Positions 3,242 to 56,563 of a stretch of DNA of 64,000 nucleotides are shown piece by piece; position 1 is the stretch's first letter, and every line of letters starts with the position of its first letter. The translations under genes were made by a program, and so were the position numbers. The notes under the pieces were generated by a model. That model searched no databases, was not told the origin of the DNA, and saw only the letters and a list, made by a program, of their open reading frames with translations. This stretch comes from an uncultured Candidatus Saccharibacteria bacterium (GTDB lineage: Bacteria; Patescibacteriota; Minisyncoccia; Phycocordibacterales; GWA1-40-21). The stretch covers positions 103 through 64,102 of the forward strand of contig CAZSCE010000001.1 in assembly GCA_964605355.1 (NCBI GenBank), given 5' to 3'.

Positions 3242-4051
3242 TTATTTATCTAAAATTATTTCCACAAAACTTAACTCAGAAATATTAACCGGGCTTTTAA
3301 AAAGAACAGTTTGGGTTGAATCTTTATCTTTAAAATTAATTTTCTCCACAATTCCAAAAACATTGGCGGTAATAGATGGAATCACAATCACATCCCCTTC
3401 CTTTACCTCTACCTCCTTGGGAATAGAAATATTAAAATTACCGCCCCCAATTCCCACGGCCTCAACACTAACAGAGCTATTACCTAATACCACGGATAAC
3501 TTTTGCCCGGGGGTAGAATAAAGGGTAATTTTTGACATATTTGGGTATACCTCAGTCACCTCACCAATATACACATTGGCGTTAGCCACTACCCTATCAC
3601 CCACTTTTATACCCTGATCTGAGCCAATATCCACCGTGAGCATATCATAAGGGGTTTGAGGTGGTTTGACCAAAACGGCGGCTAAAACAGTTTTTTTATT
3701 AATATCTTTACGACCGAGTAAATCTTTTAAATTTTCATTTTCTGCTTGTAGTGTTTCATTTATTGCTATCAAATTTCCGGCCATAAACAGCTTTTGCTCC
3801 ATCACCAGTTTTTCATTTATTAAAGTTTGCTTAAATTTAAAATATTGAAAAAAGTTGGAATTAGTAATTGAATTCTTGATTTGCCAAATTGGAGTAGCTA
3901 TATAAAAGAGTCCTTTGCGCACTGGGCTGGAGGCGATAATCAAAATTAATATTATTAAAATAATAATAACATTTATCACCCTTTTTCTAGCATTCCTCTT
4001 TCGATCTTCAAAATTACTGCTTTTTAGGAGGTAATTCATCTTCGTTTTCAA
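3242..4051 (-). CDS. mreC: rod shape-determining protein MreC
   Basis: N-terminal TM segment, a coiled-coil region (QAENENLKDLL) and a C-terminal beta-rich domain with GDRVVA...GIVEKI-type motifs. It overlaps the 3' end of mreB by 38 nt. Confidence 0.75.
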   Translation of the reverse strand: MKTKMNYLLKSSNFEDRKRNARKRVINVIIILIILILIIASSPVRKGLFYIATPIWQIKNSITNSNFFQYFKFKQTLINEKLVMEQKLFMAGNLIAINETLQAENENLKDLLGRKDINKKTVLAAVLVKPPQTPYDMLTVDIGSDQGIKVGDRVVANANVYIGEVTEVYPNMSKITLYSTPGQKLSVVLGNSSVSVEAVGIGGGNFNISIPKEVEVKEGDVIVIPSITANVFGIVEKINFKDKDSTQTVLFKSPVNISELSFVEIILDK

Positions 4052-5084
4052 TTAAAACTTCAATATAATCATTTAAATTTTCCAAAATAATACCGGTACC
4101 TCTGGCAATTGCTGTTAATGGATCACTGGCAATATATACCGGGATTTTTAATTCTTCATTCAAAAGTACATCTAAACCACGAATCAAGGCTCCACCACCC
4201 ACTAAATATATACCTCTCTGCATAATATCAGAAACAATTTCCGGCGGGGTGGTCTCCAAAACTTCTTTTACTGTTTCTACTAGGGTGGCAATACTTTGAG
4301 CCATAGCTTCACGCACATCACCATCAGTAATAATTACCTCTCTTGGTAAACCAGTGACCAAATCACGGCCTTTGACGGAAACTTCCATACTTTGCTCCAG
4401 CATGACAGAACCAACATTTATTTTAATCTCTTCAGCGGTTTTTTCACCAATTAATATTTTAAATTCGCTTCTAATGTAAGTAATAATATCTGTGTTTAAT
4501 CTATCACCAGCAATACGCAGATTTTTTGACTTTACAATTCCACCAAGGGAAATGACGGCGATATCAGAGGTGCCACCGCCAATATCAATCACCATACTGC
4601 CCACCGGACTTTTTATAGGTAAGCGAATACCAATAGCGCCGGCCATTGGTTCCTCCACAATATATACCTCACGGGCACCAGCATTCCTGGTGGCATCACG
4701 CACCGCCCTTATCTCCACGTTTGTTACGCCCGAGGGAACGCCCACCACTACACGCGGGCCTAATGGTTTTGGTGACAGTTCCTCAGCTTTTTTAACCAAA
4801 TAAGCAATCATTTCCTCCGTCACTTCAAAATCAGAAATCACACCATCCACGAGCGGGCGAACAGCTACAATGTGCGGCGGAGTTCTACCCAGCATGGCTT
4901 TGGCTTGTGACCCAACGGCCACCACGCGCCCAGTCTTCTGATTCAAGGCCACCACAGATGGCTCATTTACCACAATACCTTTTCCAGCTAAATATACTAT
5001 AGTATTAGCTGTTCCCAGATCAATTCCGATATCGTTGGAAAAGCGTCTGTATATTTTTGCTTTTAATTTTTCAAAAAATTCCAT
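4014..5084 (-). CDS. mreB: actin-like rod-shape protein MreB
   Basis: IGIDLGTANTIVY...NEPSVVA...VIDIGGGTSDIAVISLGGIV...LVGGGALIRGLD are the actin-fold phosphate 1, phosphate 2 and adenosine motifs typical of MreB. Confidence 0.9.
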   Translation of the reverse strand: MEFFEKLKAKIYRRFSNDIGIDLGTANTIVYLAGKGIVVNEPSVVALNQKTGRVVAVGSQAKAMLGRTPPHIVAVRPLVDGVISDFEVTEEMIAYLVKKAEELSPKPLGPRVVVGVPSGVTNVEIRAVRDATRNAGAREVYIVEEPMAGAIGIRLPIKSPVGSMVIDIGGGTSDIAVISLGGIVKSKNLRIAGDRLNTDIITYIRSEFKILIGEKTAEEIKINVGSVMLEQSMEVSVKGRDLVTGLPREVIITDGDVREAMAQSIATLVETVKEVLETTPPEIVSDIMQRGIYLVGGGALIRGLDVLLNEELKIPVYIASDPLTAIARGTGIILENLNDYIEVLIENEDELPPKKQ

Positions 5085-7441: not shown

Positions 7442-7992
7442 TAGGCGGTTATTTCTTTTTGCTTTTTAACAAAGATTTCTTCTAGTGCTTTGTTGCCGGC
7501 ATCTACTAATTTTTGCATTTCTGTTTTGAAACGGAATTTATCATCTTCACCCATACCTCCCTCCTTTTCCTTAGTATCAATATCTTTCACCACCTCATCA
7601 CGCACACTGCGCAAGGTGATTTTAGCTTGCTCATGCTTTTCTTTGGCAATCTTGGTTAATAATTCTCGGCGCTCGCTGGTCAGATCAGGGAAAAATACGC
7701 GCACGCCTTTTTCATCTGTTTTTAGAGAAACACCTAGGTTAGCCACGGTGATGGCTTTTTCCACTGCCTTTACTTGTGAAGCATCCCACGGGGTGACCAG
7801 TAAAGATTTAGCATCAGCAATACTCACAGAACCCACCTGATTTAAAGGCATGCGCTGACCATAGCTTTCTACCTGAACAGCATCTAATAACTGTGGTGAA
7901 GCCATACCGGTCCTGATCCCGGTGTATTCCTTCTTCATCCATTCCTCAGTTTCCTTTATTTTACTATTTAGTTTTTTGAAATCGTATTGCAT
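7441..7992 (-). CDS. frr: ribosome recycling factor
   Basis: 183 aa with Frr-like sequence throughout (e.g. ...IRTGMASPQLLDAVQVESYGQRMPLNQVGSVSIADAKSLLVTPWD...). The size is typical of Frr. Confidence 0.9.
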   Translation of the reverse strand: MQYDFKKLNSKIKETEEWMKKEYTGIRTGMASPQLLDAVQVESYGQRMPLNQVGSVSIADAKSLLVTPWDASQVKAVEKAITVANLGVSLKTDEKGVRVFFPDLTSERRELLTKIAKEKHEQAKITLRSVRDEVVKDIDTKEKEGGMGEDDKFRFKTEMQKLVDAGNKALEEIFVKKQKEITA

Positions 7993-8017
7993 AGTTTTGT
8001 TTGATTAAGGAAGCAAG

Positions 8018-8092
8018 AATTGTTTGAATTTTTTATAGCGTCGGAGCCCACCCGTACTCGGGAAGGGTGAAGCTTAAAAAATTTAAATAATT
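8018..8092. repeat. REP/MITE-like structured intergenic element, copy 1 of 3 (core 8037..8073)
   Basis: The 37-nt core AGCGTCGGAGCCCACCCGTACTCGGGAAGGGTGAAGC is shared with copies at 47447..47483 and 60748..60785. It is flanked by the A+T-rich inverted arms AATTGTTTGAATTTTTT and AAAAAATTTAAATAATT. It lies about 50 nt upstream of the frr start. Confidence 0.7.
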
Positions 8093-8118
8093 TTGATTCC
8101 TGATTACTAATAAATTAA

Positions 8119-8841
8119 TTATAGCACAAGTGCCAGATGTTCCAAAATGACTTTGATGGAGGGTGACTCATCATTGGCATAACTGATGGCTTTCTCAATA
8201 TCTTCAATAGCCAGGAGGCTGCCACTGCGCGCATTATGTGCGTTCTTTACCTTTAGCGTTGATTTAATAACCTTCTCAATATTTTTCAAAAAATTAATAG
8301 CATCACTTTTATTCAGCTTTTCATCTTTTATATCTTTTACAATTTTAGCCACCTGAGTTAAACGCTTCCCCACCTTAGCATTTAGGAATTCTTCAGCTTG
8401 GGCCAGTGGCGTGGCAAACTTACCCTCACCCTTACTAATTATTAATCTGGACTTCAAAGTAGGAAGTAAATCAGAAAATGAGGGGAGAATTAAAAAGAAA
8501 ATAGTATCCGCTCGTGGTTCCTCAAAAATTTTTAATAAAGAATTCTGCGCATCTTTGGTCATAAAATTAGCAGAGATAACAAAAACCTTTCTCTCATACT
8601 TTATGGGCATATTTAAATGCGCTTCATTTATAGCCCGACTATCAATAATTTTAAAAACGTTAAAATCCCCCTGCCAAAAATCCGGATTGTTGGTAACAGG
8701 AAATTTCAAATCCTTCTTTAGGAAATCAAAAAGCTCTTCCTTAACTTTATCCTTGGCCCCTAAAACGCCGTAGGCATGGTGAAGTTGCCCTCGCTTCTTG
8801 TAGTTCTCCCTGATCTGCTTCATAGGTGTAGTATAGCACAC
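8119..8841 (-). CDS. holB: DNA polymerase III delta-prime-like clamp-loader subunit (minimal form)
   Basis: LHHAYGVLG (degenerate P-loop region), NSLLKIFEEP (the NALLKTLEEP box) and LPTLKSRL (SRC-like motif). 240 aa with a truncated C-terminus. Confidence 0.55.
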   Translation of the reverse strand: MCYTTPMKQIRENYKKRGQLHHAYGVLGAKDKVKEELFDFLKKDLKFPVTNNPDFWQGDFNVFKIIDSRAINEAHLNMPIKYERKVFVISANFMTKDAQNSLLKIFEEPRADTIFFLILPSFSDLLPTLKSRLIISKGEGKFATPLAQAEEFLNAKVGKRLTQVAKIVKDIKDEKLNKSDAINFLKNIEKVIKSTLKVKNAHNARSGSLLAIEDIEKAISYANDESPSIKVILEHLALVL

Positions 8842-8912
8842 CTAGAAAACAACCGCCCCATCCATCAGAATGGACACCCCTCCTTAACTAAGGTGGGGAA
8901 AATTGGGAAAAA

Positions 8913-9926
8913 CTAACGTTTTGCTATGATTGATTTCTTATAGACGTCTAAATGTTCCAAAGCAATACCAGTGCCTTTGGCCACACAGTACATAGGATCT
9001 TTAGCAACGGCGGCTTTTACACCAGTTCGGCGGAAAACAAGTTCAGCTAAATTTCTTAATTGAGAAGAACCGCCTGTCATAATTATTCCTTGATCAATAA
9101 TATCAGCGGCCAATTCTGGTGGCGTTTCCTGCAACACATCTTTTATTGCTTTAATCATATCTCGTAATTCCTTGGAGATAGCTTTTACAATTTCATTAGT
9201 TTTTATTTCTGCAGTTCTTGGCAATCCGGACAAAAAGTCTCGGCCTTTTATGGTCATAGTTAATTCCTCTTCCATAGGCACAGCTGAACCAACAACAATT
9301 TTTATTTCCTCCGCGGTTTTATCTCCAATAGCCAAGTTAAAAGTTTTCTTTATATAATCAGCAATAGCATAATCAATTTTATTCCCCGCACACTTTACAG
9401 AAGTTGAAGCCACAATTCCCCCCAAGGAAATCACCGCCACATCCGTGGTCCCTCCACCAATATCCACCACCATATGACCCATGGGCTCCTGAATTGGAAT
9501 ACCGGCACCAATAGCGGCTAAAATAGGTTCTTTCACCACATATGCATTTTTAGCGCCGGCTTTCATGGCGGCTTCTATCACCGCGCGTCTCTCTGTGGAG
9601 GTAACACCGGCCGGTACGGACACCATCACTTCTGGTTTAAATAAATTCCATTTACCAAGTGCCTTATCAATAAAATAACGCAACATGGCCTCAGTCACAC
9701 GGTAATCAGCAATCACACCGTCCTTCATAGGCCGATAAGCAATAATACTGTCCGGAGTTTTACCAAGCATTTTCTTGGCCTCTACCCCCACCGCCAAAAT
9801 TTTATTATCCTGTTCAGATACGGCCACCACAGAAGGTTCAAACAAAACCACCCCTTTACCAGGTAAAAAAACCAGAGTATTAGCCGTTCCTAGGTCAATT
9901 CCAATTTTTTTGGTGAAAAATGACAT
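8913..9926 (-). CDS. second MreB/Mbl-like actin homologue
   Basis: IGIDLGTANTLVF...VVDIGGGTTDVAVISLGGIV...MTGGSSQLRNL are the same actin-fold motifs as in the mreB at 4014..5084. It is a paralog and is not linked to mreCD. Confidence 0.8.
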   Translation of the reverse strand: MSFFTKKIGIDLGTANTLVFLPGKGVVLFEPSVVAVSEQDNKILAVGVEAKKMLGKTPDSIIAYRPMKDGVIADYRVTEAMLRYFIDKALGKWNLFKPEVMVSVPAGVTSTERRAVIEAAMKAGAKNAYVVKEPILAAIGAGIPIQEPMGHMVVDIGGGTTDVAVISLGGIVASTSVKCAGNKIDYAIADYIKKTFNLAIGDKTAEEIKIVVGSAVPMEEELTMTIKGRDFLSGLPRTAEIKTNEIVKAISKELRDMIKAIKDVLQETPPELAADIIDQGIIMTGGSSQLRNLAELVFRRTGVKAAVAKDPMYCVAKGTGIALEHLDVYKKSIIAKR

Positions 9927-9985
9927 ATATTAGCTTTAATATAGCACTTCTTATTTTTTTTACAATCTTATGCTATACTCGCCAT

Positions 9986-11281
9986 ATGAATTTTCAAATT
10001 GAAGGCGGGCACAAATTATCAGGCACAGTAGTAACCAAAACCTCAAAAAATGGGGCCATGGGCGTTATTTGTGCTTCCCTATTAAATAAAGGAAAAACAA
10101 TTATTAAAAACGTGCCTAAAATTGAGGAAGTTTTCAGAATGATAGAAGTTTTAGAAAGTATTGGTGTCTCCGCAAAGTGGAATGACGCTGATTTAGAAAT
10201 ATTACCAGGCAAAATTAATTTAAAAAATATTAATAAAGAAAGTGCGGAGAAAACCCGAAGTATTATTATGCTGATTGGCCCACTGATTCACCTTTTGAAA
10301 AAGTTTTCCTTACCACAACCAGGTGGCTGTAATTTAGGTTCACGAACCTTGAAGCCACATTTATTTGCGTTACAAAAATTTGGTGTACAAATTGAAACTA
10401 AGAAATGTAGTTACAATGTCAGCCGTGGAGCATTACAACCAAATGAAATTATTTTATATGAAAGCGGTGACACCGTGACGGAAAATACCATTATAGCCGC
10501 CGCCTTAATTCCTGGAAAAACCGTTATAAAATATGCTTCTGCCAATTATATGGGGCAGGAAGTTTGTTTCTATTTACAGAAATGTGGAGTAAAGATTGAG
10601 GGTATTGGCACCACCACTATTACTGTTCATGGAGTAAAAGAAATTAATTCTCCAGTCACCTATTATCTATCAGAAGACCCAATTGAGTCTATGTTTTTTA
10701 TTTCTACCGCTATTGTCACTAAATCAAAATTAAAAATAAAACGCTGCCCAATTGATTTTTTGGAACTGGAGCTTTTAAAATTAGAAAAGATGGGTTTGAA
10801 ATATTCCAAATCAAAAGTTTATAAATCATTAAATAAGGAAACAAATTTAGTAGACTTAATTATCTTTTCTTCAAAATTAATAGCCTTGGAGGAGAAAATT
10901 CACCCTAGCGTCTATCCGGGAATAAATATGGATAATTTACCTTTCTTTGCCATTATTGCCACTCAGGCGGAGGGCACTACCTTGATTCATGATTGGCCTT
11001 ATGAAAAAAGAATGATCCATGTCAAAGATATTGATAAGCTGGGTGCTGATACAAACTTGGTTGATTGTCACCGCTTATATATAACTGGTATTACAAAATT
11101 AAAACCAGCGGAAATTATCTGCCCTCCAGCTCTACGCCCCGCCGCTATCCTGCTTATTGGTATGCTAGCTGCCAAAGGCCGCTCCATGCTCAGAAACGTG
11201 TATAGTATTAACCGCGGTTATGAAGATATTGCCCTCCGCCTCAACGCCCTCGGCGCCAAAATAAATATCTTGAAAGATTAG
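9986..11281 (+). CDS. murA: UDP-N-acetylglucosamine 1-carboxyvinyltransferase
   Basis: MNFQIEGGHKLSGTVV...NGAMGVICASLL...CNLGSRTLKPHL...LRPAAILLIGMLAAKG are MurA/EPSP-fold signatures. The start is set at the ATG 9986 (MNFQIEGG), not the track start 9920. A TGnTATACT box sits 10 nt upstream, so the mRNA is leaderless. Confidence 0.9.
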   Translation: MNFQIEGGHKLSGTVVTKTSKNGAMGVICASLLNKGKTIIKNVPKIEEVFRMIEVLESIGVSAKWNDADLEILPGKINLKNINKESAEKTRSIIMLIGPLIHLLKKFSLPQPGGCNLGSRTLKPHLFALQKFGVQIETKKCSYNVSRGALQPNEIILYESGDTVTENTIIAAALIPGKTVIKYASANYMGQEVCFYLQKCGVKIEGIGTTTITVHGVKEINSPVTYYLSEDPIESMFFISTAIVTKSKLKIKRCPIDFLELELLKLEKMGLKYSKSKVYKSLNKETNLVDLIIFSSKLIALEEKIHPSVYPGINMDNLPFFAIIATQAEGTTLIHDWPYEKRMIHVKDIDKLGADTNLVDCHRLYITGITKLKPAEIICPPALRPAAILLIGMLAAKGRSMLRNVYSINRGYEDIALRLNALGAKINILKD

Positions 11282-11286
11282 GGTTT

Positions 11287-13218
11287 TTGTGCCAGTATAT
11301 AGGCCTGATGAAATTACTGAGCGTTATACCCATATCGCGAGGAATTAACAAGGAAAGCTTGTCATATTTTACCGGCTCAGACATTTCCGTGGGATCTGTG
11401 GTAAAAGTCCCCTTAAGGAAGAAAATCATCCCCGCTATCGTTATTTCTGCTGAAGATGTGGCTGATGTAAAAGCCGAGATTAAAAATGCCAGTTTTGAAA
11501 CTCGCAAAGTAGAAAAAATAAAGTCCTCCACCTTATTATCAAAAGAATTTATGGCCGCTGTTTCTGAGACCGCAGTATTTTTTGCCAGCACTTCCGGCAG
11601 TGTATTACATTCTGTTGTGCCCAAAACCATTATTGAGGAAGCGGATAAAATTAAATGTAGTATCCGTGAATTAAAAGGCCAGCGCATCCACGAGAAATTA
11701 GTAATTCAATGTGATGACGAGGAAAGATATGCTACCTATAAAAGTTTGATCCGCGAGGAATTTGCCAAAGGCTACTCCGTTTTTTTCTGCTTACCCACTA
11801 TTCAGGATATTAAAAAAGCACTTGAAAAATTATCCAAAGGGATAGAGCAATATACTTTTGTTCTTCACAGCCTATTATCCCAAAAAGAACAACTGGAGCT
11901 TTGGAACAAGGCGGCCAATGAGGAACACCCATCCCTAATTATTTGTACCGGCTCATTTTTAGGTATCCCCAGAAATGATATTGGCACCATAATTGTGGAC
12001 AAAGAAAATACCCGTTCCTATAAAAGCCAAAGCCGGCCTTTTGTGGATATGAGAAACTTTGCAGAAACCCTGGCGGAAAAAATTAAGGCTAAAATAGTTT
12101 TTGGAGATTTACTTTTGCGGACAGAAACAATTTATCGACACACGGAAGCGGAGATATTTGAAGTGGCGCCTTTGAAATTCCGTTCCCTCACTACGGCAAA
12201 TTTAAAGTTAATAAATATGCGGGAAACTTTACCAGGGAATATTGAAACCGGTAAGGAAGGTAAAGAACCAAAATTTAAATTATTTAGTGATGATTTATTA
12301 AACTTGATTAAAGATAATCAGCTAAATGATGAAAACTTGTTTATTTTTGTGGCCAGACGAGGGCTTTTCCCCTCTACCGTTTGTGCGGATTGTGGCAGCC
12401 TCATCCGCTGTAATTCCTGTGGCGCGCCCACCGTTTTACACAAGGCACCAAGTGAGAACTTTTTCCTTTGCCACCGTTGTGGTGAACACCGCAGTGCCAT
12501 GGAAAAGTGTAATAATTGCCAGAGCTGGAGACTATCCACTTTTGGTATTGGGATAGAGGCGGTAGAGGAAGAATTAAAAGAAAGGTTTCCCAATATCAAA
12601 ATATTTAAGGTTGATTCTGATAGCGCCAGCACTCATAAAAAGGCCCTGGACACTATGGCTAAATTTTATGCTTCCCCCGGTAGTATATTACTGGGCACGG
12701 AAATGGCCTTATTATATTTAAAAGACTCGGTAGCTAATACTGCTGTGGTTTCTATTGATTCATTTTTCTCCATCCCAGACTTTAGGGTAAATGAAAAAGT
12801 AATGAATATATTATTAAAGATTCGCGCCGCTTCATCTAGAAACTTTTTAGTGCAAACCCGTGATATAGAACAAAAAATATTAAAGTATGCGCTGGCGGGA
12901 AACTTGGCAGACTTTTACCGTGATGAGATCAAAGAAAGAACCAGCCTGGCTTACCCACCTTTTTCTATACCAATAAAAATAACCCTGCAGGGTGACAAAA
13001 AAACCGTTTTGGCCGGCATGGAGAATTTACAAAAAGAGATGGCCCCATTTGAGGTGGATATTTTCCCCGCCTTTATCCCCATCCAGAAGGGCAAATTCAG
13101 TATGCACGGATTAATAAAAGTTAAACAGGGTGAATGGGTGGATCAGGAATTATTAAATAAGCTGAATTCCCTTTCCCCAAGCTTTACTGTGAATGTTGAC
13201 CCCGAGAGTCTTTTGTAA
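11287..13218 (+). CDS. priA: primosomal protein N' (PriA)-like, with degenerate helicase ATP-binding motifs
   Basis: The PriA N-terminal 3'-DNA-binding region, the Cys-rich zinc region (CADCGSLIRCNSCGAPTVLH...CHRCGEH...CNNCQSW) and the C-terminal domain are all present. The Walker A position reads QCDDEERYATYKS instead of GxxGSGKTEVY, and the DEEH box reads DKEN. Confidence 0.8.
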   Translation: MCQYIGLMKLLSVIPISRGINKESLSYFTGSDISVGSVVKVPLRKKIIPAIVISAEDVADVKAEIKNASFETRKVEKIKSSTLLSKEFMAAVSETAVFFASTSGSVLHSVVPKTIIEEADKIKCSIRELKGQRIHEKLVIQCDDEERYATYKSLIREEFAKGYSVFFCLPTIQDIKKALEKLSKGIEQYTFVLHSLLSQKEQLELWNKAANEEHPSLIICTGSFLGIPRNDIGTIIVDKENTRSYKSQSRPFVDMRNFAETLAEKIKAKIVFGDLLLRTETIYRHTEAEIFEVAPLKFRSLTTANLKLINMRETLPGNIETGKEGKEPKFKLFSDDLLNLIKDNQLNDENLFIFVARRGLFPSTVCADCGSLIRCNSCGAPTVLHKAPSENFFLCHRCGEHRSAMEKCNNCQSWRLSTFGIGIEAVEEELKERFPNIKIFKVDSDSASTHKKALDTMAKFYASPGSILLGTEMALLYLKDSVANTAVVSIDSFFSIPDFRVNEKVMNILLKIRAASSRNFLVQTRDIEQKILKYALAGNLADFYRDEIKERTSLAYPPFSIPIKITLQGDKKTVLAGMENLQKEMAPFEVDIFPAFIPIQKGKFSMHGLIKVKQGEWVDQELLNKLNSLSPSFTVNVDPESLL

Positions 13219-13230
13219 TATATTATAAAT

Positions 13231-13803
13231 ATGAAGAAAAGTAATTTAGGAAAAACAGCAGTAGAAATTGTCCAAAAAGGCGTGCCGGTATTGAGAGATA
13301 CGGCCCGGAATGTTTTGGCGGAAGAAATATCGGGCCCCAAAATTCAAAAGATTATTGCTGATATGATTGCCGCCCTAGACTCTCAGGATGACGGTGTGGC
13401 TATTGCGGCCCCGCAAATTGGTGTCCCGCTCCGAATATTTGTGGTTTCCAGAAAGGCTGAATTACTAATGAAAGGCGTAGAAAATATTGCCGAGAAGGAT
13501 TTAAAGAATTTAAAATATCCAGTATATATTAATCCAGAAATCAAGAAATTATCCAGGACCAGGGTGCGCGTGGATGAAGGCTGTCTCTCTGTTCGTTATT
13601 TATATGGCAAGGTGGAAAGAGCAGAAAAGGCCACTGTCACGGCTTATGATGAAAATGGCAAGAAATTTACCAAGGGGGCTAGTGGTTTACTAGCCCAGAT
13701 ATTTCAGCACGAAATTGATCACCTAAATGGTATATTATTTATTGATAAAGCAGATGATATTGTAGAGGTTTTACCAGAAAGGAAATCACCAGATGATAAA
13801 TAA
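13231..13803 (+). CDS. def: peptide deformylase
   Basis: GVAIAAPQIGVPLRIFVV (motif 1), EGCLSV (motif 2) and QHEIDHLNG (motif 3, the metal-binding HExxH). Confidence 0.9.
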   Translation: MKKSNLGKTAVEIVQKGVPVLRDTARNVLAEEISGPKIQKIIADMIAALDSQDDGVAIAAPQIGVPLRIFVVSRKAELLMKGVENIAEKDLKNLKYPVYINPEIKKLSRTRVRVDEGCLSVRYLYGKVERAEKATVTAYDENGKKFTKGASGLLAQIFQHEIDHLNGILFIDKADDIVEVLPERKSPDDK

Positions 13804-14659
13804 AACTAATATTGCCTTTTTTGGAAATTCAAAATTCTCGGTTTTTTGTTTGGAAGAAATGAAAAATCAGGGTTTGACACCAGCGGTGGTTATTACCACA
13901 CCAGATAAACCCACGGGGCGAAAAATGCTTTTAACTAAAAGCGAAACCAAAGTGTGGGCAGAAAATAATAATGTGCCTTTCATAGAACAAGATAAATTAA
14001 AAGATGAAACTTTCCTAGAAAAACTAAAACAATATGATTTATTTCTTGTGGCCTCATACGGCAAAATCGTGCCAAAAGTTATTCTGGATATGCCTAAATA
14101 TGGTGTTTTAAACATCCACCCATCCCTATTGCCAAAATACCGCGGCCCTTCCCCACTTCAGGAACAAATTCTAAATGATGAAAAAAATGTGGGTGTGACC
14201 GTGATGCTTATGGATGAGCAAGTGGATCATGGACCAATTATTGCTCAGGAAAAACTGCCTGCCCCGAGCCTGTTGAAGGGGCCGGCTAATTTGATTGAAC
14301 TAAAAGAAATCACTGCAAAAACCGGAGTAAAATTGCTGGTAGAAAATTTAGATGCTTGGATTAATAAAAAAATAGAAGCAGAAGAGCAAGATCATGATCA
14401 AGCTACTTTTACTAAAAAGGTGGAGAAGAATGATGGTTTATTAGACCTAGAATTTGGGAAGCCTTATGAGAATTATTTAAAAACCAAGGCTTATTACCCC
14501 TGGCCCGGCACTTTCTTCTTTATTTCTAAGGGTGACAAAAAAATCCGTGTGGTTATCAAGGAATCAGAATATATTGACGGGGCCTTTCATATCCTAAAAG
14601 TTATCCCCGAAGGTAAGAAAGAAATGAGTTATGGTGATTTTCTTCGTGGTCTAAATTAA
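13793..14659 (+). CDS. fmt: methionyl-tRNA formyltransferase
   Basis: The formyltransferase N-domain (IAFFGNS...VLNIHPSLLPKYRGPSPLQ) and the C-terminal Fmt domain are present. The gene is adjacent to def, the usual def-fmt order, and overlaps it by 11 nt. Confidence 0.9.
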   Translation: MINKTNIAFFGNSKFSVFCLEEMKNQGLTPAVVITTPDKPTGRKMLLTKSETKVWAENNNVPFIEQDKLKDETFLEKLKQYDLFLVASYGKIVPKVILDMPKYGVLNIHPSLLPKYRGPSPLQEQILNDEKNVGVTVMLMDEQVDHGPIIAQEKLPAPSLLKGPANLIELKEITAKTGVKLLVENLDAWINKKIEAEEQDHDQATFTKKVEKNDGLLDLEFGKPYENYLKTKAYYPWPGTFFFISKGDKKIRVVIKESEYIDGAFHILKVIPEGKKEMSYGDFLRGLN

Positions 14660-17600: not shown

Positions 17601-19001
17601 ATGTCACAACAAACTGTAAAAAAAAGTGTCACCAGGATTCCCCCAAATAATATTGATTCTGAGCGCGCCCTTTTGGGCTCCATCATGCTCCGGCCAGAAG
17701 CTATTCATGAAATCATGGACATAATTAAGGCTGATGCTTTTTATGCGGAAAAACACCGGATTATTTTTCAGGCGATGGGTGAGATTTTTCAGCGCAATGA
17801 ACCAATTGACCTTCTCACCATTTCTGCCCGTTTGACCGAAAAAAACCAGTTGGATCACACTGGTGGCACCGGCTATCTCACAGAATTAGTGAACTTAGTT
17901 CCCTCATCAGCTAACGCTGAGCATTATGCGGAAATTGTGCAGAAAAAATATGTGATGCGCCAACTGATTGAAGCCTCGGAACATATTTCACTTTTGGGTT
18001 ATGAAGAGGCTGAGGACCTCAGTACCCTGCTTGATTTAGCTGAGAAAAAAATATATGAAGTGACCCAAGGAAAAACTTCTAATAAATTTGTGGAGATTAA
18101 AGATATATTAGCGGAAGCCTGGGAGCGTGCTGATAAATTACATAAGAGTAAAGATGAGCTCCGTGGAATTCCTACCGGCTTTCGTGATTTGGACGCTAAA
18201 CTGTCAGGTCTTCAAAAATCAGATTTAATTATTCTTGCCGCCCGCCCTTCTATGGGAAAAACTTCCCTGGCCCTAGATATTGCCCGCCAGGCCGCTATCA
18301 AACATAATGTTCCTGTTGCTATCTTCTCCTTGGAAATGTCAAACCAGCAATTAGTGGACCGTATGATTGCCGCTGAATCACGAGTGGATTCCTGGAAATT
18401 ACGTACTGGTAAATTAACTTTGGAGAGTGATTTTGACCGTATTCGTGATTCCCTGGGTGTCTTGGCCAAGGCCCCTATCTTTGTGGATGATCAGCCTGCC
18501 AACAATATTTTGAAAATGCGCGGTGTGGTGCGCCGATTAAAAAATGAAAAAGGAATTGGCCTAGTGGTGGTGGACTACCTACAACTCATGGCACCAGTAC
18601 AAAATAAAAATAATGATAATTTGGTTCAGCAAATAACAGAGATTTCCCGCTCGCTAAAGCATTTGGCTCGTGAATTTGATGTGCCGGTATTAGCCCTTTC
18701 CCAGCTTTCTCGTGCGGTGGAACAACGTGGAGGCCGTCCCCGCCTTTCAGACTTACGTGATTCTGGTTCTATTGAGCAGGATGCGGATGTAGTTATGTTT
18801 ATTCACAGTGAAGACAGATATAAAGATGAATCCGAGCATACCAATATTACTGAAATCCTGATTGAAAAGCACAGAAACGGCCCCACCGGTGTGGTACAGC
18901 TGTTCTTTGATAAAAATAAAACCAGCTTTATGGACATTGATAGAAATTCTGATTTCAAGGATTTTGACGGGGCGGCAAAGTCAGATGGTGGCGTGTTTTA
19001 A
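17601..19001 (+). CDS. dnaB: replicative DNA helicase DnaB
   Basis: N-terminal ...IPPNNIDSERALLGSIMLRPEAIHEI..., a RecA-like domain with ARPSMGKTSLALDIA (Walker A) and VVVDYLQLM (Walker B). No intein insertion. Confidence 0.95.
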   Translation: MSQQTVKKSVTRIPPNNIDSERALLGSIMLRPEAIHEIMDIIKADAFYAEKHRIIFQAMGEIFQRNEPIDLLTISARLTEKNQLDHTGGTGYLTELVNLVPSSANAEHYAEIVQKKYVMRQLIEASEHISLLGYEEAEDLSTLLDLAEKKIYEVTQGKTSNKFVEIKDILAEAWERADKLHKSKDELRGIPTGFRDLDAKLSGLQKSDLIILAARPSMGKTSLALDIARQAAIKHNVPVAIFSLEMSNQQLVDRMIAAESRVDSWKLRTGKLTLESDFDRIRDSLGVLAKAPIFVDDQPANNILKMRGVVRRLKNEKGIGLVVVDYLQLMAPVQNKNNDNLVQQITEISRSLKHLAREFDVPVLALSQLSRAVEQRGGRPRLSDLRDSGSIEQDADVVMFIHSEDRYKDESEHTNITEILIEKHRNGPTGVVQLFFDKNKTSFMDIDRNSDFKDFDGAAKSDGGVF

Positions 19002-42933: not shown

Positions 42934-45426
42934 ATGACCAGAACAGAAATATTATTAAAGAAAAGTCACATTTACCCCGCACTTCTACTTGAGGGATTTT
43001 TCTCAGGTGAAAAAAGAAGGTTGATAATTAAGATAACAAAATATTTATTAATATCTATCCCTATCATAATTATTCTAAGCCTTATTTTTGGTAGTTTTAT
43101 GGGGCCCAGTATTAACACGCTAATTAATACAATCATATTAAAATTATTAGGCCTAATTATTCTTTCCTTTGCCCTATATCTATTGATGCAAGCCTTTGAA
43201 GCTTATTTTGCTTCTACTTATTATTTTGAATATGTAGCCAAAAATAAATACACGGCTGGTGATATATACACCTTCTCGGCTGGAAGAATATTAAGGAGGG
43301 TGGAGAATGATAATTTATTAACTGGTCTTTTAAAATCTCAGGGTGTTGGTAAAAGGATAATTCGTCGGTTAGGAATAAGTGAAAATGAGGCAGATACTCT
43401 ACTCATGAAACAGGCAGATATTAAAAACCCGCCAATTTTTAAAACAGATAATATACCTCTGATCAAGGTCTCTACTATAGTTGATTTTATTTATGAAAAT
43501 CATTCAGATTTTAAGGAGTTATTATCAAATCGTGGTATTAAACAAGCTGATCTGGACGCCGTGGTAAGCTGGGTGATTTATGATTTGGAAGATATAGAAT
43601 ACAACAGACAGTGGTGGGTGCCAGAAAAATTATCAATGATACCAGGGGTAGCAGAAGATTGGTCATTTGGCAGAACGTATTTATTAAGCCGATACAGCCG
43701 AAATATATTAAATGATGTTGAGGTAAATTCTGGAGCAATTTCCTTTTCAGGCAGGACCAGAGAATTAGAACAACTTCAATCTGTCTTGGCCAGATCCTCT
43801 GGTGCCAATGCCCTACTCGTGGGCCTACCGGGGCAAGAGAAAATGGAAGTAATTTGGAACCTAAGCCGAAATATTAAGAACAAGACCGCTAGCCCAGAAT
43901 TAATTGGTAAAAAACCATTACTATTCTTAACAACCAATTTTACGGCAGAGATGAATAATAAGGATGACTTTGAAGATAAGCTGGTTACTATATTTGCTGA
44001 AGCTCTTCAAGCGGGAAACATTATTTTAGTGGTAGATAACTTTCCAAGACTTATTTTACAAGCAAAGCAATACGGCCTAAATTTAATTGAGATAATTGAA
44101 CCATATTTAAATAGTATTAATGACCCTATCATAGCTTTGGCTGACACAGAATATTTTCACACCCTGATAGAATCAGATCAGGCCACAATGTCACACTTTG
44201 AAACCGTACTTACCAAACCCCTTCTCTTAGATGAAATAGTAAAAATTATTTCTCATCAAGTTTTAGTTGTTGAAAGAATATACGGCATAACATTTACCTA
44301 TCTGGCGATACTTGAAATTGCCAAGAGTGCAGAATATTATTTCCCAGATGGAGTATCATCTGATAAAGCCACAGATTTATTAAAAGAAATTTCTCCTTGG
44401 GCAATAGAACATAGGTTAGAAATTCTTGGTAAGGAAGAAGTATTAGATTATGTTGGACAAAAAACTAATATTCCCCTAGCCAGGATTTCATCTGACGAAA
44501 AAGACAAGTTACTTAATCTTGAGGATTTACTGATGAAGCGAGTGGTGGCACAAAGAGAAGCCATCTTTTCTGTGGCTAGTGCCATGAGACGTAGCCGAGC
44601 GGGCATCAGAAATGAAAAGAGGCCGTTGGGATCATTCTTATTCCTGGGCCCAACCGGTGTGGGAAAAACAGAAACCGCTAAAGCCATGGCTGACGTATTT
44701 TTTGGTGATGAGAAATTATTAATGCGCCTGGACATGTCTGAATATCAAAATACAGAATCCCTGGCTCGCCTGATAGGCTCTAGAGAAAATAACACCCAAG
44801 GAATACTTTCAAATATGTTACGCGAACGCCCTTATGGCGTACTATTACTGGATGAATTTGAGAAAACTAACAAAGACGTGCTGAACCTATTTTTGCAAAT
44901 AATTGATGAGGGGTATTTCTCTGATGTCTTTGGCAAAAAGGTTATGGCCAGGAATATTATGTTTATTGCCACCAGTAACGCCGGCGCCGAGAAAATATTT
45001 GATATTGTCTCAACCGGTAAAGACCTAAAGAAGTTTGAAACTGAAATAGTGGCTGATATAGTAAAACAAGGTATTCTTAAGCCAGAACTTATTAACCGTT
45101 TTGATGCCACTGTTTTATTTCACCCCCTCACCAAGGAAAATTTATTTGAGATTGCTAAAATTATGCTAAATAAAGTTGCTAAACGCTTAGCAGAAAAAGG
45201 TATGATCCTAACTGTAGACAAAGAATTAATTGATTTTGTGGTCACCGGTGGCTACAACCCCACCTTTGGTGCCCGCCCCATGAACCGCCTTATTCAGGAT
45301 ACAGTGGAGCAACATTTAGCTGACTTAATTATTCGTGAAGAATTAACTGCCGGCCAAACGGTCAGTTTCAAGATACTCTCAAATGAAGATAATAAAAATA
45401 GCTTGAAACCAATAGTGGAAGGCTAA
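42934..45426 (+). CDS. membrane-anchored Clp/Hsp100-family AAA+ protein with degenerate D1 and intact D2 ATPase domain
   Basis: Residues about 14-100 form 3-4 TM helices. A Clp_N-like repeat follows (NLLTGLLKSQGVGKRIIRRLGI). D1 has GLPGQEKMEV in place of GxPGVGKT and DN in place of DE. D2 is canonical: GPTGVGKTE, LLLDEFEKT, ATSNAG and FGARPMNR. Confidence 0.7.
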   Translation: MTRTEILLKKSHIYPALLLEGFFSGEKRRLIIKITKYLLISIPIIIILSLIFGSFMGPSINTLINTIILKLLGLIILSFALYLLMQAFEAYFASTYYFEYVAKNKYTAGDIYTFSAGRILRRVENDNLLTGLLKSQGVGKRIIRRLGISENEADTLLMKQADIKNPPIFKTDNIPLIKVSTIVDFIYENHSDFKELLSNRGIKQADLDAVVSWVIYDLEDIEYNRQWWVPEKLSMIPGVAEDWSFGRTYLLSRYSRNILNDVEVNSGAISFSGRTRELEQLQSVLARSSGANALLVGLPGQEKMEVIWNLSRNIKNKTASPELIGKKPLLFLTTNFTAEMNNKDDFEDKLVTIFAEALQAGNIILVVDNFPRLILQAKQYGLNLIEIIEPYLNSINDPIIALADTEYFHTLIESDQATMSHFETVLTKPLLLDEIVKIISHQVLVVERIYGITFTYLAILEIAKSAEYYFPDGVSSDKATDLLKEISPWAIEHRLEILGKEEVLDYVGQKTNIPLARISSDEKDKLLNLEDLLMKRVVAQREAIFSVASAMRRSRAGIRNEKRPLGSFLFLGPTGVGKTETAKAMADVFFGDEKLLMRLDMSEYQNTESLARLIGSRENNTQGILSNMLRERPYGVLLLDEFEKTNKDVLNLFLQIIDEGYFSDVFGKKVMARNIMFIATSNAGAEKIFDIVSTGKDLKKFETEIVADIVKQGILKPELINRFDATVLFHPLTKENLFEIAKIMLNKVAKRLAEKGMILTVDKELIDFVVTGGYNPTFGARPMNRLIQDTVEQHLADLIIREELTAGQTVSFKILSNEDNKNSLKPIVEG

Positions 45427-49389: not shown

Positions 49390-50571
49390 TCACAGAAGAG
49401 AAAGAATCAGCTCGCCCATTTCTGATGTATGCAAGAGGCTAGAACCTTTGCTGTAAACCAGTGTCAGGTTCGGATCACCACCAACATACATATCCCCCGT
49501 CCGATAGCCCTGCTTCAGAGCCTCACGAACTGCTTCCTCAATGGCTTTTGCGCCCTTCACCGCACCCAAATGCCGGAGCATCATGGCCGCCGTGAGAATG
49601 CGCCCCAGCGGATTAGTTTTGTTCTGCCCAGCCAATGTCGGAGCCGTCCCCGCACCGCTTTCAAACATCGCTGCGCCCGTGTCCGGATTGATGGCCGAAC
49701 TGCACATCATCCCCATACTGCCAAGTGCCGCCGCTGCTCCATCCGAGAGGATGTCCCCGTGCTCATTTCCACAAGCAATGACGCCGTGGAGTTTGGCCGG
49801 AGTGAACAACAGTGCATTCGCCGAGTCTACCAACTGGTGCTGGAGTGGCACGTCCGGGAATTCCGTCCTCCCGATTCTCGTGACAATCTTGCGCCAAAAG
49901 TCATACCGCGCCATCACGTTTGCCTTGTCGATGGAGATGAGAGGCAAGCCCACATCTCTCGCGTAAGTAAACGCCGCCCGGATATACTTCTCAATTGTTT
50001 CCCGGCGATAGTAGGCGATGTCAGAGACGAGCCTCTCGTCACCCGTCACACACTTCTTCAACCTGACGCCGATCCGTTCACAACCATCGCTTGGTATAAG
50101 TGACATCAGATCCTCGTTCCCGAAGTAGCTGTCCTCCAGGAGGAAGCGAATCCAAACCTGGGTGATGCCCTCGGCCGGAATTGTTTCCGGTCTGACGTTG
50201 GCCAAATGCGCCAGCTCCTTGTAGTAGATCATGGGGCGGAAGTTGAGCAACAACCCCATGTCTTTACGCAGTTTCAGCAAACACCTTGACTCCGGCTTCA
50301 TCTCCGGCTTCTCCTTGCCGATGGTGTCGTCCCACTTGGGATCACCCACGCCACCGAAGAAGATTGTGCCGATTTCAACCGCTCTTTTCAGAGACGCTTC
50401 CGGCCGTGTGTCGCCAAACTTTTCGTAGGCGCTCCACCCCATCGGAGTCTTTTCAAAAGCGATCTGGATGTTGTCCTTCTCAGCGGCCTTGATGGCAACA
50501 GCACAAGCCACCGCCATCATCTCCGGACCAGAGCCATCTCCAGTCACCAGAGCAACTGTTTTTTTTATCAT
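49390..50571 (-). CDS. 3-isopropylmalate/isocitrate/homoisocitrate dehydrogenase family enzyme
   Basis: LVTGDGSGPEMM (the GDGIGPEV box) and NEHGDILSDGAAAALGSMGMMCSSAI (the IMDH/IDH signature N-x-x-GD-I-x-SD). High G+C composition. Confidence 0.8.
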   Translation of the reverse strand: MIKKTVALVTGDGSGPEMMAVACAVAIKAAEKDNIQIAFEKTPMGWSAYEKFGDTRPEASLKRAVEIGTIFFGGVGDPKWDDTIGKEKPEMKPESRCLLKLRKDMGLLLNFRPMIYYKELAHLANVRPETIPAEGITQVWIRFLLEDSYFGNEDLMSLIPSDGCERIGVRLKKCVTGDERLVSDIAYYRRETIEKYIRAAFTYARDVGLPLISIDKANVMARYDFWRKIVTRIGRTEFPDVPLQHQLVDSANALLFTPAKLHGVIACGNEHGDILSDGAAAALGSMGMMCSSAINPDTGAAMFESGAGTAPTLAGQNKTNPLGRILTAAMMLRHLGAVKGAKAIEEAVREALKQGYRTGDMYVGGDPNLTLVYSKGSSLLHTSEMGELILSLL

Positions 50572-50645
50572 TTCGCGTTTCCTTTCTTGAGCTGTAACCC
50601 GTGGGCTGATTTTTCATGTCAACCCACGGGTTCATCTTGTTTCGC

Positions 50646-52637
50646 TTACTTCAGCAGTCCTGCTCCCTGCAGTTCCGCCGCCATCTTCACCATTACGCCG
50701 ACGCTTCCGCCGTTACGAATGAGGTCCTTCTGGTATACTGAATGATTGAAAGAAACCCCCTTCAAGCCAACACAGTTGCCAGAGCAACTAGTACTCGGGT
50801 CCATCTCCCAACCTATTGTGCCTTTCTCCCAATCAACACTAATCACTTCAGGCTTCTCGGCGAAGATAGAAGCGATTGTCTCTTTTGGAAGCGTAATGCA
50901 CAACAGTCCGTTGGCAAACATGTTGTTCTCAAAGATGCGAGCAAAGCTCGGTGCAATGACGCACCGAATACCCGCACCCTCGAGTGCCCAAGGCGCATGT
51001 TCACGAGATGAACCGCAACCAAAGTTCTCACCCGCTACCAGTATCTGTGACCCAAAGAGCTTGGGCCAGTCCGCCGACGAAATCGGCGCATCCTCGAGAC
51101 AGTGTTGGCCAAAAGCCTTCTTGTCTGTCTCGGTCAAATACTTGGCCGGAATGATCTGATCAGTATCTACGTTGGCCACCGGCAGGTAAAACACCTTACC
51201 GGAAAAATCCTTCGTCTCCCCCACTCCGAAGAGCTCGAGAAGCTGGCCGTAGTCCGGCCGTTGTGAAGGAACTTCTTTCCAACCCGTGATGCTGGTCAAT
51301 TTCGGAACCGACATCAAACTCACTTCGCGCGCGACCAATCGACAAGTATCTTCAGTTGCCTCTGATACCACTCCGTTGATAGCAGTTTTCGCCGCCGTCG
51401 CCGGTGATGCCAGATGCACCATACCATCCTTGCCCATGCGTCCCGGGAAATTGCGATTCGTCGTCGAAACGCAAACTTCTCCTGGAGCAATCACCCCACA
51501 ACTCATTCCCAGGCAGGCACCGCAAGTGGGACCGCTCACGAAACACCCCGCGTTAGCGAAGATTCCAAACAGCCCTTCCTCAAGTGCCATCTCCCAGATA
51601 TGCTGAGTGGCTGGAACTACAATGCAACGAATATTGTCTGCCACCGGGCGCCCCATCAAACGAAAGATTGTTGCGGCAATCCGCAAATCTTCCAACCGTC
51701 CGTTCGTGCAAGAGCCGATGTAGACCTGGTCAACTTTCTTGCCGGCCAAGTCACTCACCTTCTTCACACAACCTGGTGAATACTCGTCAGTGATGACAGG
51801 AACCATGTCCGAGGCATCAATCTCGATCACCTGATCGTAGACCGCATCCGGATCACTATTCCAGTAGTCGCCCATAAGATAATTCCCAACCTCGAGATTC
51901 TCATGAACTAGGCGCCGGTATCCCGACCCAAGATAATCCATGGTGGTTTGATCCACCATCATCATCCCGGACGTTGCACCTGCTTCCACCGCCATGTTGG
52001 TGATGGTCATCCGCGCTTCCATACTCATCTCATCAATGACTGGGCCACCAAATTCCAACACCGCGTTGGTGGCGCCCTTCACACCAATCTTGCTGATCAG
52101 CGTGAGGATGAGATCTTTGGCGTAAACATTCGCTGGCAATGCGCCGGTGAAGTTCACCCGAATGACTTTCTGAGGTGGACAGATCCAGAGACCGGTTATG
52201 ATGCCGTTCTCCACTTCTGTCGTACCGACACCCGCCGTCAAAGCACAAAAAGCGCCGTGCGTGCAGGTGTGGCTGTCACCCATGATTCCGATCTGGCCCG
52301 GTTTGATCCAGCCCTTCTCAGGAATGACGGCGTGACAAACGCCGTTGCGACCGACGTCCAAAAACTCGATCCCGTGTTCCCGGCTCCAGTTGCGGACAAT
52401 CTGACCTTGAAGGGCCGAAGCCGTATCCTTGGCCGGATTGACGTGATCAATCATGGTCTTGACCTTGTTCGGGTCAAAAACCACATCGCACCCGCGAATC
52501 TTGGCGTCCAGGATAGCGTTTGGTGTCGTAATCTCATGACCCCAAACCCAATCCAGCTGAAGAACCATCCGGCCATCCGGCAAGGTCTTCACACAATGTG
52601 TATCCACGATTTTCTGAAACGCTGTCTTTCCGTTCAT
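50646..52637 (-). CDS. fused aconitase-family dehydratase (LeuC-like large plus LeuD-like small subunit)
   Basis: GVCHAVIPEKG, IGSCTNGRLEDL and the C-terminal GENFGCGSSREHAPWAL. 663 aa, matching the sum of the two subunits. High G+C composition. Confidence 0.8.
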   Translation of the reverse strand: MNGKTAFQKIVDTHCVKTLPDGRMVLQLDWVWGHEITTPNAILDAKIRGCDVVFDPNKVKTMIDHVNPAKDTASALQGQIVRNWSREHGIEFLDVGRNGVCHAVIPEKGWIKPGQIGIMGDSHTCTHGAFCALTAGVGTTEVENGIITGLWICPPQKVIRVNFTGALPANVYAKDLILTLISKIGVKGATNAVLEFGGPVIDEMSMEARMTITNMAVEAGATSGMMMVDQTTMDYLGSGYRRLVHENLEVGNYLMGDYWNSDPDAVYDQVIEIDASDMVPVITDEYSPGCVKKVSDLAGKKVDQVYIGSCTNGRLEDLRIAATIFRLMGRPVADNIRCIVVPATQHIWEMALEEGLFGIFANAGCFVSGPTCGACLGMSCGVIAPGEVCVSTTNRNFPGRMGKDGMVHLASPATAAKTAINGVVSEATEDTCRLVAREVSLMSVPKLTSITGWKEVPSQRPDYGQLLELFGVGETKDFSGKVFYLPVANVDTDQIIPAKYLTETDKKAFGQHCLEDAPISSADWPKLFGSQILVAGENFGCGSSREHAPWALEGAGIRCVIAPSFARIFENNMFANGLLCITLPKETIASIFAEKPEVISVDWEKGTIGWEMDPSTSCSGNCVGLKGVSFNHSVYQKDLIRNGGSVGVMVKMAAELQGAGLLK

Positions 52638-56492: not shown

Positions 56493-56563
56493 CTGGGGGA
56501 TTTGGAATCGAACCAAAATAAACGGATCCAAAATCCGTTGTCCTACCTTTAGACGATCCCCCA
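56493..56563 (-). tRNA. tRNA-Gln (anticodon TTG)
   Basis: Manual cloverleaf on the minus strand: acceptor TGGGGGA/TCCCCCA (U1-A72), U8, D-arm GTCT-AAAGGTA-GGAC, anticodon arm ACGGA-TTTTGGA-TCCGT (U33, anticodon TTG), variable loop TTAT, T-arm TTTGG-TTCGATT-CCAAA and discriminator G. Confidence 0.7.

Follow-up and report, generated by a model that had tools for sequence, protein, structure and literature searches.

Within a 64,000-nucleotide stretch of contig CAZSCE010000001.1 (assembly GCA_964605355.1; hereafter, the window), we analyzed the gene at positions 11287 to 13218, which an earlier note had read as a homologue of the primosome protein PriA with ruined ATP motifs. In this Patescibacteria genome (Paceibacteria/Minisyncoccia, near 'Ca. 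Taylorbacteria'), the gene is the chromosomal PriA orthologue. As judged from alignments, the motifs that serve ATP are gone from its product while those that contact nucleic acid are kept, and this substituted-motif state is common to the lineage, far beyond chance. We consider it likely, with a probability of roughly three in four, that the protein is a PriA pseudohelicase, i.e., a factor that recognizes forks and assembles primosomes without the use of ATP and would help to reload the replicative helicase DnaB.

The open reading frame (ORF) runs on the forward strand from a TTG codon at 11287 to 13218 and encodes 643 amino acids. Since every database orthologue starts seven codons downstream of this TTG, at MKLL, translation probably begins at ATG 11308 and yields a 636-residue protein; residue numbers below refer to this product unless an ORF residue is stated.

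11308 to 13218, forward strand: coding sequence of the priA orthologue (putative pseudohelicase), 636 amino acids, defined by the ORF, TIGR00595, and the MKLL start of the orthologues.

When scored against TIGR00595, the curated PriA equivalog, the protein reached 250.2 bits (cutoff 230.35) over model positions 14 to 507 of 509, the alignment starting directly past the Walker A block of the model. The PRK05580 sub-models gave 130 to 244 bits, all far under their cutoffs of 763 to 1249, and the actinobacterial PriA models (PRK14873) gave 91 bits or less, which places the query nearer to PriA of the TIGR00595/PRK05580 type. A Pfam scan recognized the PriA 3'-DNA-binding domain as the sole domain and no DEAD/ResIII helicase domain. 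Although identity to canonical PriA is only about 18 to 20%, phmmer against PDB sequences returned PriA entries alone (4nl4, 6dgd, 6dcr, 8fak, and 9zbu; E 1e-36 to 3e-34), and a profile of 124 family members improved the match to PriA structures to E 4e-67. An AlphaFold2 (AF2) model built from the alignment of these 124 members had a mean predicted local distance difference test score (pLDDT) of 91.8 and a predicted template modeling score (pTM) of 0.90. In a Foldseek search of the PDB with this model, the top nine matches were all PriA (E 1e-38 to 1e-28; template modeling [TM] score 0.69 to 0.79), the next family being Mfd (E 1e-9, TM 0.35), and the PriA-specific fold of the bilobed, RecA-like superfamily 2 (SF2) core was recovered. 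The assignment to PriA made in the earlier note is therefore sound, both by the curated profile and by the crystal and cryo-EM structures that head the structural matches, at TM scores of about 0.75 to 0.79.

We then examined the helicase motifs. Of the motifs of SF2 helicases, I, II, and VI serve to bind and hydrolyze ATP, III has a coupling role, and nucleic acid is contacted by Ia, IV, and part of V. The corresponding positions of the query are as follows.

11707 to 11730, forward strand: motif I (Walker A) relic QCDDEERY, canonically G-V-T-G-S-G-K-T, with Arg140 at the Lys position.
11998 to 12009, forward strand: motif II (Walker B) relic DKEN, canonically DEEH, aligned directly, with the catalytic Glu replaced by Lys.
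12103 to 12129, forward strand: motif III relic GDLLLRTET, canonically GSATPxLET, from profile and pairwise alignments.
12355 to 12363, forward strand: motif IV RRG, kept, canonically NRRGFAP, aligned to the RRG of 4nl4.
12694 to 12720, forward strand: motif V relic GTEMALLYL, canonically GTQMxAKGH, with G-T kept and K-G-H lost.
12811 to 12861, forward strand: motif VI region LLKIRAASSRNFLVQTR, with GRAGR lost together with a five-residue deletion, R506 left, and the QT(R) after it kept.

The register of motif I was set by the profile-to-PDB alignment, in which 'T-EVYLS' of Klebsiella PriA stands opposite 'Y-ATYKS' of the query, extended by one ungapped residue. GSGKT thus pairs with DEERY (residues 137 to 141), and Arg140 occupies the position of Escherichia coli K230. 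The earlier note had correctly seen that Walker A is lost, but had set GSGKT against DEERYATY, a register that does not stand. The change of DEEH to DKEN that it described is confirmed by direct alignment to PriA structures, and the strings QCDDEERYATYKS and IIVDKENT lie in the ORF at ORF residues 141 and 235. Beyond these two losses, motifs III, V, and VI, which the note had not mentioned, are noncanonical as well. Functional forms of the SF2 ATPase motifs I (GxGKT), II (DEEH), and VI (GRAGR) are absent from the query, and for motif VI both alignments to PriA structures place a gap opposite 'SGRAG/GRAGK.' In the AF2 model, strand 129–134 runs into helix 137–153, and a P-loop between beta1 and alpha1 is not modeled.

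A P-loop hidden or shifted elsewhere was also considered and ruled out. Searches with the patterns GxGK[ST], [AG]x4GK[ST], GK[ST], and DEx[HD] gave zero matches in the protein and in all forward frames of positions 11000 to 13400; matches in this interval were confined to antisense frames, as expected by chance. An intact GxGKT, which by the earlier note itself would have refuted its reading, is found neither at the site nor anywhere else, whether by profile alignment or by pattern. On the nucleic-acid side, the query retains Pro163-Thr164 of motif Ia (canonical VPEI reads LPTI, the Pro being retained), RRG of motif IV, G-T of motif V, and Q-T past motif VI. Since K230R alone kills the activity of E. 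coli PriA, and here the Gly-rich loop, the motif II Glu, and motif VI are gone too, we strongly infer from these residues that the protein has lost ATP binding and hydrolysis.

The same state was found in every relative analyzed. A first homologue search gave 120 sequences (57 to 100% identity). Cluster representatives, 1.84 billion in all, were then scanned exhaustively with HMMER, and the best 150 of 12,839 matches were taken (36 to 56% identity, one per 50% cluster); the pooled set comprised 375 sequences at 36 to 100% identity, and groundwater, sediment, lake, and sludge metagenomes added 80 further loci. The substituted motifs were carried by 120/120 homologues of the first search, and the best 150 of the 12,839 HMMER matches were all without a P-loop at the motif I site. 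GK[ST] was present at motif I in 0/375 homologues and a P-loop at the site in 0/80 metagenome loci. Arg took the Walker A Lys position (Arg140) in 374/375 homologues and 80/80 metagenome loci, with Lys in none. GxGKT strings did occur in three homologues (P0151, P0247, and P0305), all at nonhomologous positions. In the sources, homologues are named 'Ca. Taylorbacteria,' Paceibacterota, Pacebacteria, Parcubacteria, or Minisyncoccia. When the least-degenerate members were used as seeds, a second homologue search did not leave this clade, the metagenome loci were likewise all in-clade, and a scan of genome contigs with a single protein returned close relatives only.

Selection on the gene was estimated from ten orthologues, for which the mean proportion of nonsynonymous differences (pN) was 0.135 and that of synonymous differences (pS) was 0.81 (saturated), indicative of purifying selection. 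The pN/pS ratio was 0.136 in RecA-like lobe 1 and 0.133 in lobe 2, compared to 0.19 to 0.21 in the 3'-DNA-end-binding domain (3'BD) and the C-terminal domain (CTD), so the dead lobes are the more constrained parts. These data bear on whether the gene is a decaying pseudogene, or whether a sequencing, assembly, or frameshift artefact masks an intact motif. The absence of the motif itself would fit such an explanation, and nothing more does: the ORF is uninterrupted, the forward frames hold no P-loop, the codons at the motif I site are free of homopolymers that might hint at a frameshift, the 375 proteins and 80 metagenome loci that share the state come from many habitats and assemblers, purifying selection is strong, and the protein is modeled at high confidence. 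Hundreds of independently assembled orthologues with the same in-frame residues exclude the frameshift that the earlier note had envisaged. We therefore regard a pseudogene or artefact as refuted by conservation, pN/pS, and the metagenome loci. The view of the note that the protein has not simply decayed holds on the same clade-wide conservation and low pN/pS, and the survey of orthologues that it had proposed found the substitutions throughout the clade, under purifying selection. The other P-loop proteins of the window (UvrA, UvrB, DnaX, a ClpB-like protein, and DnaB) are intact.

The former nucleotide pocket carries a signature of its own. At the motif I site, Gln134 is present in 362/375 homologues and positions 137 to 139 are acidic; motif II follows the pattern [DE]-[KRNH..]-E-[NS]; and the signature of the old pocket can be written as Q-x-x-[DE]-[ED]-[ED]-R-[YF], [DE]-[KR]-E-[NS], and G-D-L-L-L-R-x-E-T. 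In the motif VI region, R506 is kept in 325, Q516 in 368, and T517 in 356 of the 375, and in motif IV, R350 is kept in 369, R/K351 in 370, and G352 in 374. Since the pocket is not drifting and has acquired a new conserved signature, it may itself have a part in the structure or in an interaction. Sporadic relics of the canonical state, namely DEEH at motif II of P0221 and a near-canonical GATTPSLE at motif III of P0222, show that the family descends from a helicase that was once active and whose catalytic residues drifted later.

It might be argued that the conserved pocket is instead a noncanonical NTPase or helicase site, built from Arg140 and the acidic residues of motif II, or lying at the second, weak nucleotide site proposed for PriA. 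The near invariance of Arg140, [DE]231, and E233 is in keeping with this idea. Nevertheless, we consider it very improbable: K230R alone abolishes the ATPase of E. coli PriA, the Deinococcus PriA with a Lys-to-Arg change is inactive, the Gly-rich loop has given way to three or four acidic residues that would repel phosphate, the AF2 helix spans the loop, the motif II Glu is mostly Lys or Arg across the family, and the losses extend to motifs III, V, and VI.

Outside the ATP motifs, most of the PriA architecture is preserved, with one domain missing. The domains are arranged as follows.

11308 to 11637, forward strand: 3'BD, residues 1 to 110 (PF17764, 24.7 bits, cutoff 22.7).
11638 to 11691, forward strand: linker, residues 111 to 128 (18 amino acids), at the site of the winged-helix (WH) domain; coil in the AF2 model between helix 106–110 and strand 129–134.
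11692 to 12207, forward strand: RecA-like lobe 1, residues 129 to 300, catalytically degenerate, from alignment to PriA structures (pLDDT 95 to 98).
12019 to 12054, forward strand: equivalent of the aromatic-rich loop (ARL)/motif IIa, YKSQSRPFVDMR, remodeled and strongly conserved in the clade.
12289 to 12942, forward strand: RecA-like lobe 2, residues ~328 to 545, with the Cys-rich region inserted, from alignments and the AF2 model.
12382 to 12519, forward strand: Cys-rich region (CRR), four CxxC pairs (8 Cys) with two predicted Zn sites, aligned to the CRR of 4nl4.
12943 to 13218, forward strand: CTD, residues 546 to 636 plus the stop codon, from profile alignment up to 4nl4 chain residue 713.

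The 3'BD gave a weak profile alignment to 4nl4 residues 42 to 120, was modeled as a beta-barrel with helices (pLDDT 82 to 96), and lies inside the Foldseek fold match. The CTD shares the full-length fold match and conserves Y549, P550, and P551. Within lobe 2, the CRR shows the complete CxxC-Xn-CxxC-Xn-CxxC-Xn-CxxC arrangement (C359, C362, C368, C371, C388, C391, C401, and C404), with C359, C362, C401, and C404 present in 375/375 homologues and C368, C371, C388, and C391 in 366 to 372 of them. The earlier note was thus right that the 3'BD and CTD are conserved, but its single Cys4-type zinc region is in fact a region of eight Cys forming two Cys4 sites. Directly past the CRR cysteines, S406-W407-R408 (12523 to 12531) reads S-W-R at the position of the E. 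coli PriB-docking residues S481-T482-H483, and Trp407 is found in 121/124 family members; the surrounding CRR surface is a candidate partner-docking site. The ARL equivalent YKSQSRPFVDMR aligns with 'YKQQEGWRYHAR' of the E. coli loop, whose role in PriA has been described (PMC5175346). It retains the initial Y-K, the Trp position is an invariant Pro in the query clade, and among the 375 homologues Y238 is kept in 347, K239 in 333, R243 in 344, P244 in 374, D247 in 367, and R249 in 364. The YPPF motif is also retained.

The missing part is the circularly permuted WH domain, which in E. coli PriA comprises residues 109 to 181 (PMC5778457), contacts the parental duplex, and separates the 3'BD from the helicase core. 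In the query, this interval is the 18-residue linker, and in nearly all 375 homologues the segment from P105 to Q134 measures 26 to 45 amino acids, the few longer ones holding low-complexity inserts, so that the WH domain is absent throughout. Consistent with this, the best mutual TM match of the model was the E. coli PriA delta-WH structure 6dcr (TM 0.77/0.77, 639 vs. 636 residues). The N-terminal length is known to vary among PriAs (PMC4504706, Fig 1 legend). The description of the protein in the earlier note as otherwise full length (643 amino acids) therefore needs correction.

The surroundings of priA were analyzed as well.

9920 to 11281, forward strand: murA, the upstream neighbor (tblastn synteny in 10 related loci).
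13231 to 14659, forward strand: def (13231 to 13803) and fmt (13793 to 14659), the downstream neighbors (tblastn synteny).
17601 to 19001, forward strand: dnaB, encoding the replicative helicase (DnaB_C, 340 bits; DnaB N-domain, 122 bits).

Ten close relatives and a member with 36% identity share the order murA-priA-def-fmt; in the latter, the def-fmt pair lies 3' of the orthologue P0270. A gene of the EPSP_synthase family adjoins priA in the distant members L011 and L012, and a 40%-identical member retains a delta'-like gene, mreB, murA, and priA. The dnaB gene lies 4.4 kb downstream of priA and is followed by recR; its product has an intact Walker A (AARPSMGKTS at residue 219) and is the presumed client that would be reloaded with the help of PriA. 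Pfam scans of 30 further window proteins identified DnaB, RecR, DnaX, a delta'-like protein, DprA, and a LexA-like protein, and when all ORFs of the window were searched by phmmer, no PriA paralogue was found, the query alone being matched.

Some further features of this neighborhood were recorded. The delta'-like DNA polymerase III protein (8119 to 8841, reverse strand, 240 amino acids) is a partial match to PF13177 (profile positions 81 to 154), and its gene is kept beside mreB-murA-priA in distant relatives. For a small genome of the candidate phyla radiation (CPR) type, the window holds two MreB paralogues (4014 to 5084 and 8913 to 9926, reverse strand) and MreC (3242 to 4051); the second mreB (8913 to 9926) divergently adjoins murA-priA. 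In relative L001, an insert of ~2.3 kb (7912 to 10210) with three minus-strand ORFs separates priA from def, and one of these ORFs (9715 to 10098) looks Cas2-like by eye only ('YDIP...K.R....L......Q.SVW').

These data allow a further explanation to be weighed, namely that the protein is a neofunctionalized PriA that keeps the fold without a role in restart and might now act as a regulator that binds DNA in a structure-specific manner, or as part of some other machine. Under this explanation, the W407 surface of the CRR and the newly conserved acidic/Arg cluster would have been turned to a different interaction. Several features would agree with it: the old ATP pocket and the ARL carry a tightly conserved new signature with no drift, the PriB-docking position S481-T482-H483 reads S-W-R with W407 in 121/124 members, and the domain that contacts the parental duplex in E. 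coli is absent. Conversely, the gene occupies the classical priA locus beside def-fmt throughout the clade with no other PriA in the window, the 3'BD, CRR, CTD, and DNA-contact motifs are all kept, and E. coli can restart replication with an ATPase-dead PriA, the form that occurs naturally in Deinococcus. On balance, we find neofunctionalization unlikely.

We thus favor the fork-recognition and primosome-assembly factor. In such a mechanism, the protein would recognize abandoned forks or D-loops without ATP through the 3'BD and the single-stranded DNA (ssDNA)-binding surface to which the dead lobes, CRR, and CTD contribute, and would then serve as a platform for DnaB reloading, either directly or through an adaptor. 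Remodeling of the duplex would be left to other enzymes, or restart would be limited to forks with a single-stranded lagging template. Several points weigh against this proposal. The pocket for the 3' end is, by eye, partly conserved, with Tyr20 kept and the E. coli residues Asp17 and Gly37 replaced by Ser and Arg. No PriB, DnaT, DnaD, DciA, SSB, or any adaptor or loader was recognizable by Pfam scans in the 64-kb window. Another PriA, canonical in its motifs, or a helicase that compensates for the loss may be encoded elsewhere in the genome, the search having covered the 64-kb window. Charge-swap covariation between position 232 and positions 136 to 139 and 506 gave no clear compensatory pattern. 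In addition, DNA binding, DnaB interaction, and the role in restart are all attributed to the protein from homology and conservation. A salt-bridged, self-filled nucleotide pocket was also considered; it is unsupported by the charge covariation and hence not claimed. The streamlined replisome with which the earlier note had associated the protein is speculation.

A more far-reaching version of the mechanism can be formulated, which we put forward tentatively and hold to be doubtful. Throughout a major CPR class, Paceibacteria/Minisyncoccia (50% identity clusters numbering at least 150), restart might be carried out with a minimal, WH-less, ATP-independent PriA. In it, the repurposed pocket (acidic residues 137 to 139, Arg140, and [DE]231-[KR]232-E233) would act as an intramolecular 'nucleotide mimic' that locks the two lobes, and the repurposed Trp407 surface would be the dock by which PriA on its own recruits and loads DnaB, with no need of PriB, DnaT, or a loader of the DnaC type. 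This would be a restart system of two proteins, arisen independently of that of Deinococcus.

Elsewhere in the window, four regions were recorded. An isocitrate/isopropylmalate dehydrogenase gene (393 amino acids) and a fused aconitase-family gene (663 amino acids, large plus C-terminal domain) lie at 49390 to 52637 on the reverse strand, in an island with a GC content of 0.45 to 0.53 against a background of ~0.38, which may be a horizontal acquisition. An 830-amino-acid protein (42934 to 45426, forward strand) has a ClpB-D2-type AAA+ module with a D2-small domain at residues 555 to 811, its N-terminal ~550 amino acids being without a Pfam match. A 181-amino-acid protein (52999 to 53544, reverse strand) joins a Gly/Arg-rich N-terminus to a treble-clef zinc finger (PF23477). 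Finally, a 231-amino-acid protein (56493 to 57244, reverse strand) with a transposase-type helix-turn-helix (weak PF25787 match, under cutoff) abuts a tRNA gene (56493 to 56563) and may be a mobile-element remnant.

A dead PriA across Paceibacteria/Minisyncoccia appears to be undescribed, although the kind itself is known from Deinococcus and from E. coli priA300; our full-text literature search returned no paper that ties the loss of PriA motifs to CPR, Patescibacteria, or Parcubacteria. The clade represents a second, much larger lineage in which the ATP motifs of PriA are lost, comprising hundreds of sequence clusters in a major part of the CPR, and it widens a supposed single-phylum exception to a feature of a major bacterial radiation. 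This supports the view, based on priA300, that the core selectable function of PriA is fork recognition and primosome assembly and not unwinding. It also offers a natural minimal PriA (delta-WH, ATPase-dead, and with no known PriB or DnaT) for studying DnaB reloading without the E. coli accessory proteins. In databases, several clade members are named 'hypothetical protein' by NCBI and others 'superfamily II helicase' by JGI (e.g., P0103, P0221, P0309, P0314, P0331, and P0334). This is a systematic annotation error, and helicase activity (EC 5.6.2.4) should not be passed to proteins of the clade.

Compared to canonical PriA from E. coli and Klebsiella pneumoniae (4nl4, 6dgd, and 8fak), the query is alike in profile score, fold, CRR, CTD, 3'BD, and motif IV. 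It differs in being without functional motifs I, II, III, V (C-terminal part), and VI and without the WH domain, in its remodeled ARL, and in the replacement of the PriB-docking S-T-H by S-W-R. Its domain order of 3'BD, lobe 1, lobe 2 with the CRR, and CTD, without a WH domain, is that of the E. coli delta-WH protein 6dcr; however, 6dcr was made by engineering the deletion into an active helicase, whereas WH loss in the query clade is natural and accompanied by the loss of catalysis. In UniProt, mycobacterial PriA is flagged as being without detectable helicase domains. Actinobacterial PriA (PRK14873), described as 'smaller and very divergent' (Rocha et al. 2005, PMC1193525), is by this description another divergent lineage, like that of the query.

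The closest engineered counterpart is E. coli PriA K230R (priA300), in which ATPase, helicase, and translocase activities are abolished while primosome assembly and PriA-PriB restart still work (PMC5778457); K230A PriA, which likewise lacks ATPase, is used routinely in DnaB-loading assays (PMC10175261). Like K230R, the query has Arg at the Walker A Lys position. Unlike the query, K230R, K230A, and K230D are engineered single changes in an otherwise canonical protein that operates with PriB, DnaT, and DnaC. Since priA300 fails in the PriA-PriC pathway, a naturally dead PriA implies either restricted substrates or another helicase.

The natural counterpart is PriA of Deinococcus radiodurans, the PriA pseudohelicase known from Deinococcus-Thermus, from the genus singled out in a review of the field, in which PriA helicase activity is said to be conserved 'except in Deinococcus.' Neither ATPase nor helicase activity was measurable for this protein (Lopper, Boone & Morrow 2015, PMC4504706), yet it binds ssDNA (dissociation constant [Kd] 215 nM), forks (109 nM), and DnaB (PMC4504706). 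Its Walker A Lys is replaced by Arg and its Walker A and B are poor matches, in a genome without clear priB and dnaT homologues (PMC4504706). By that description, the query resembles it closely, Arg140 being the same Lys-to-Arg change within poorly matching Walker motifs. The departures described for D. radiodurans PriA concern Walker A and B, whereas in the query the whole Gly-rich loop has become acidic and motifs III, V, and VI and the WH domain are lost in addition. The two proteins also come from different phyla. Since D. radiodurans PriA lacks catalytic activity and nonetheless binds forks and DnaB, the noncatalytic fork-recognition or DnaB-loading scaffold suggested in the earlier note has an experimental precedent.

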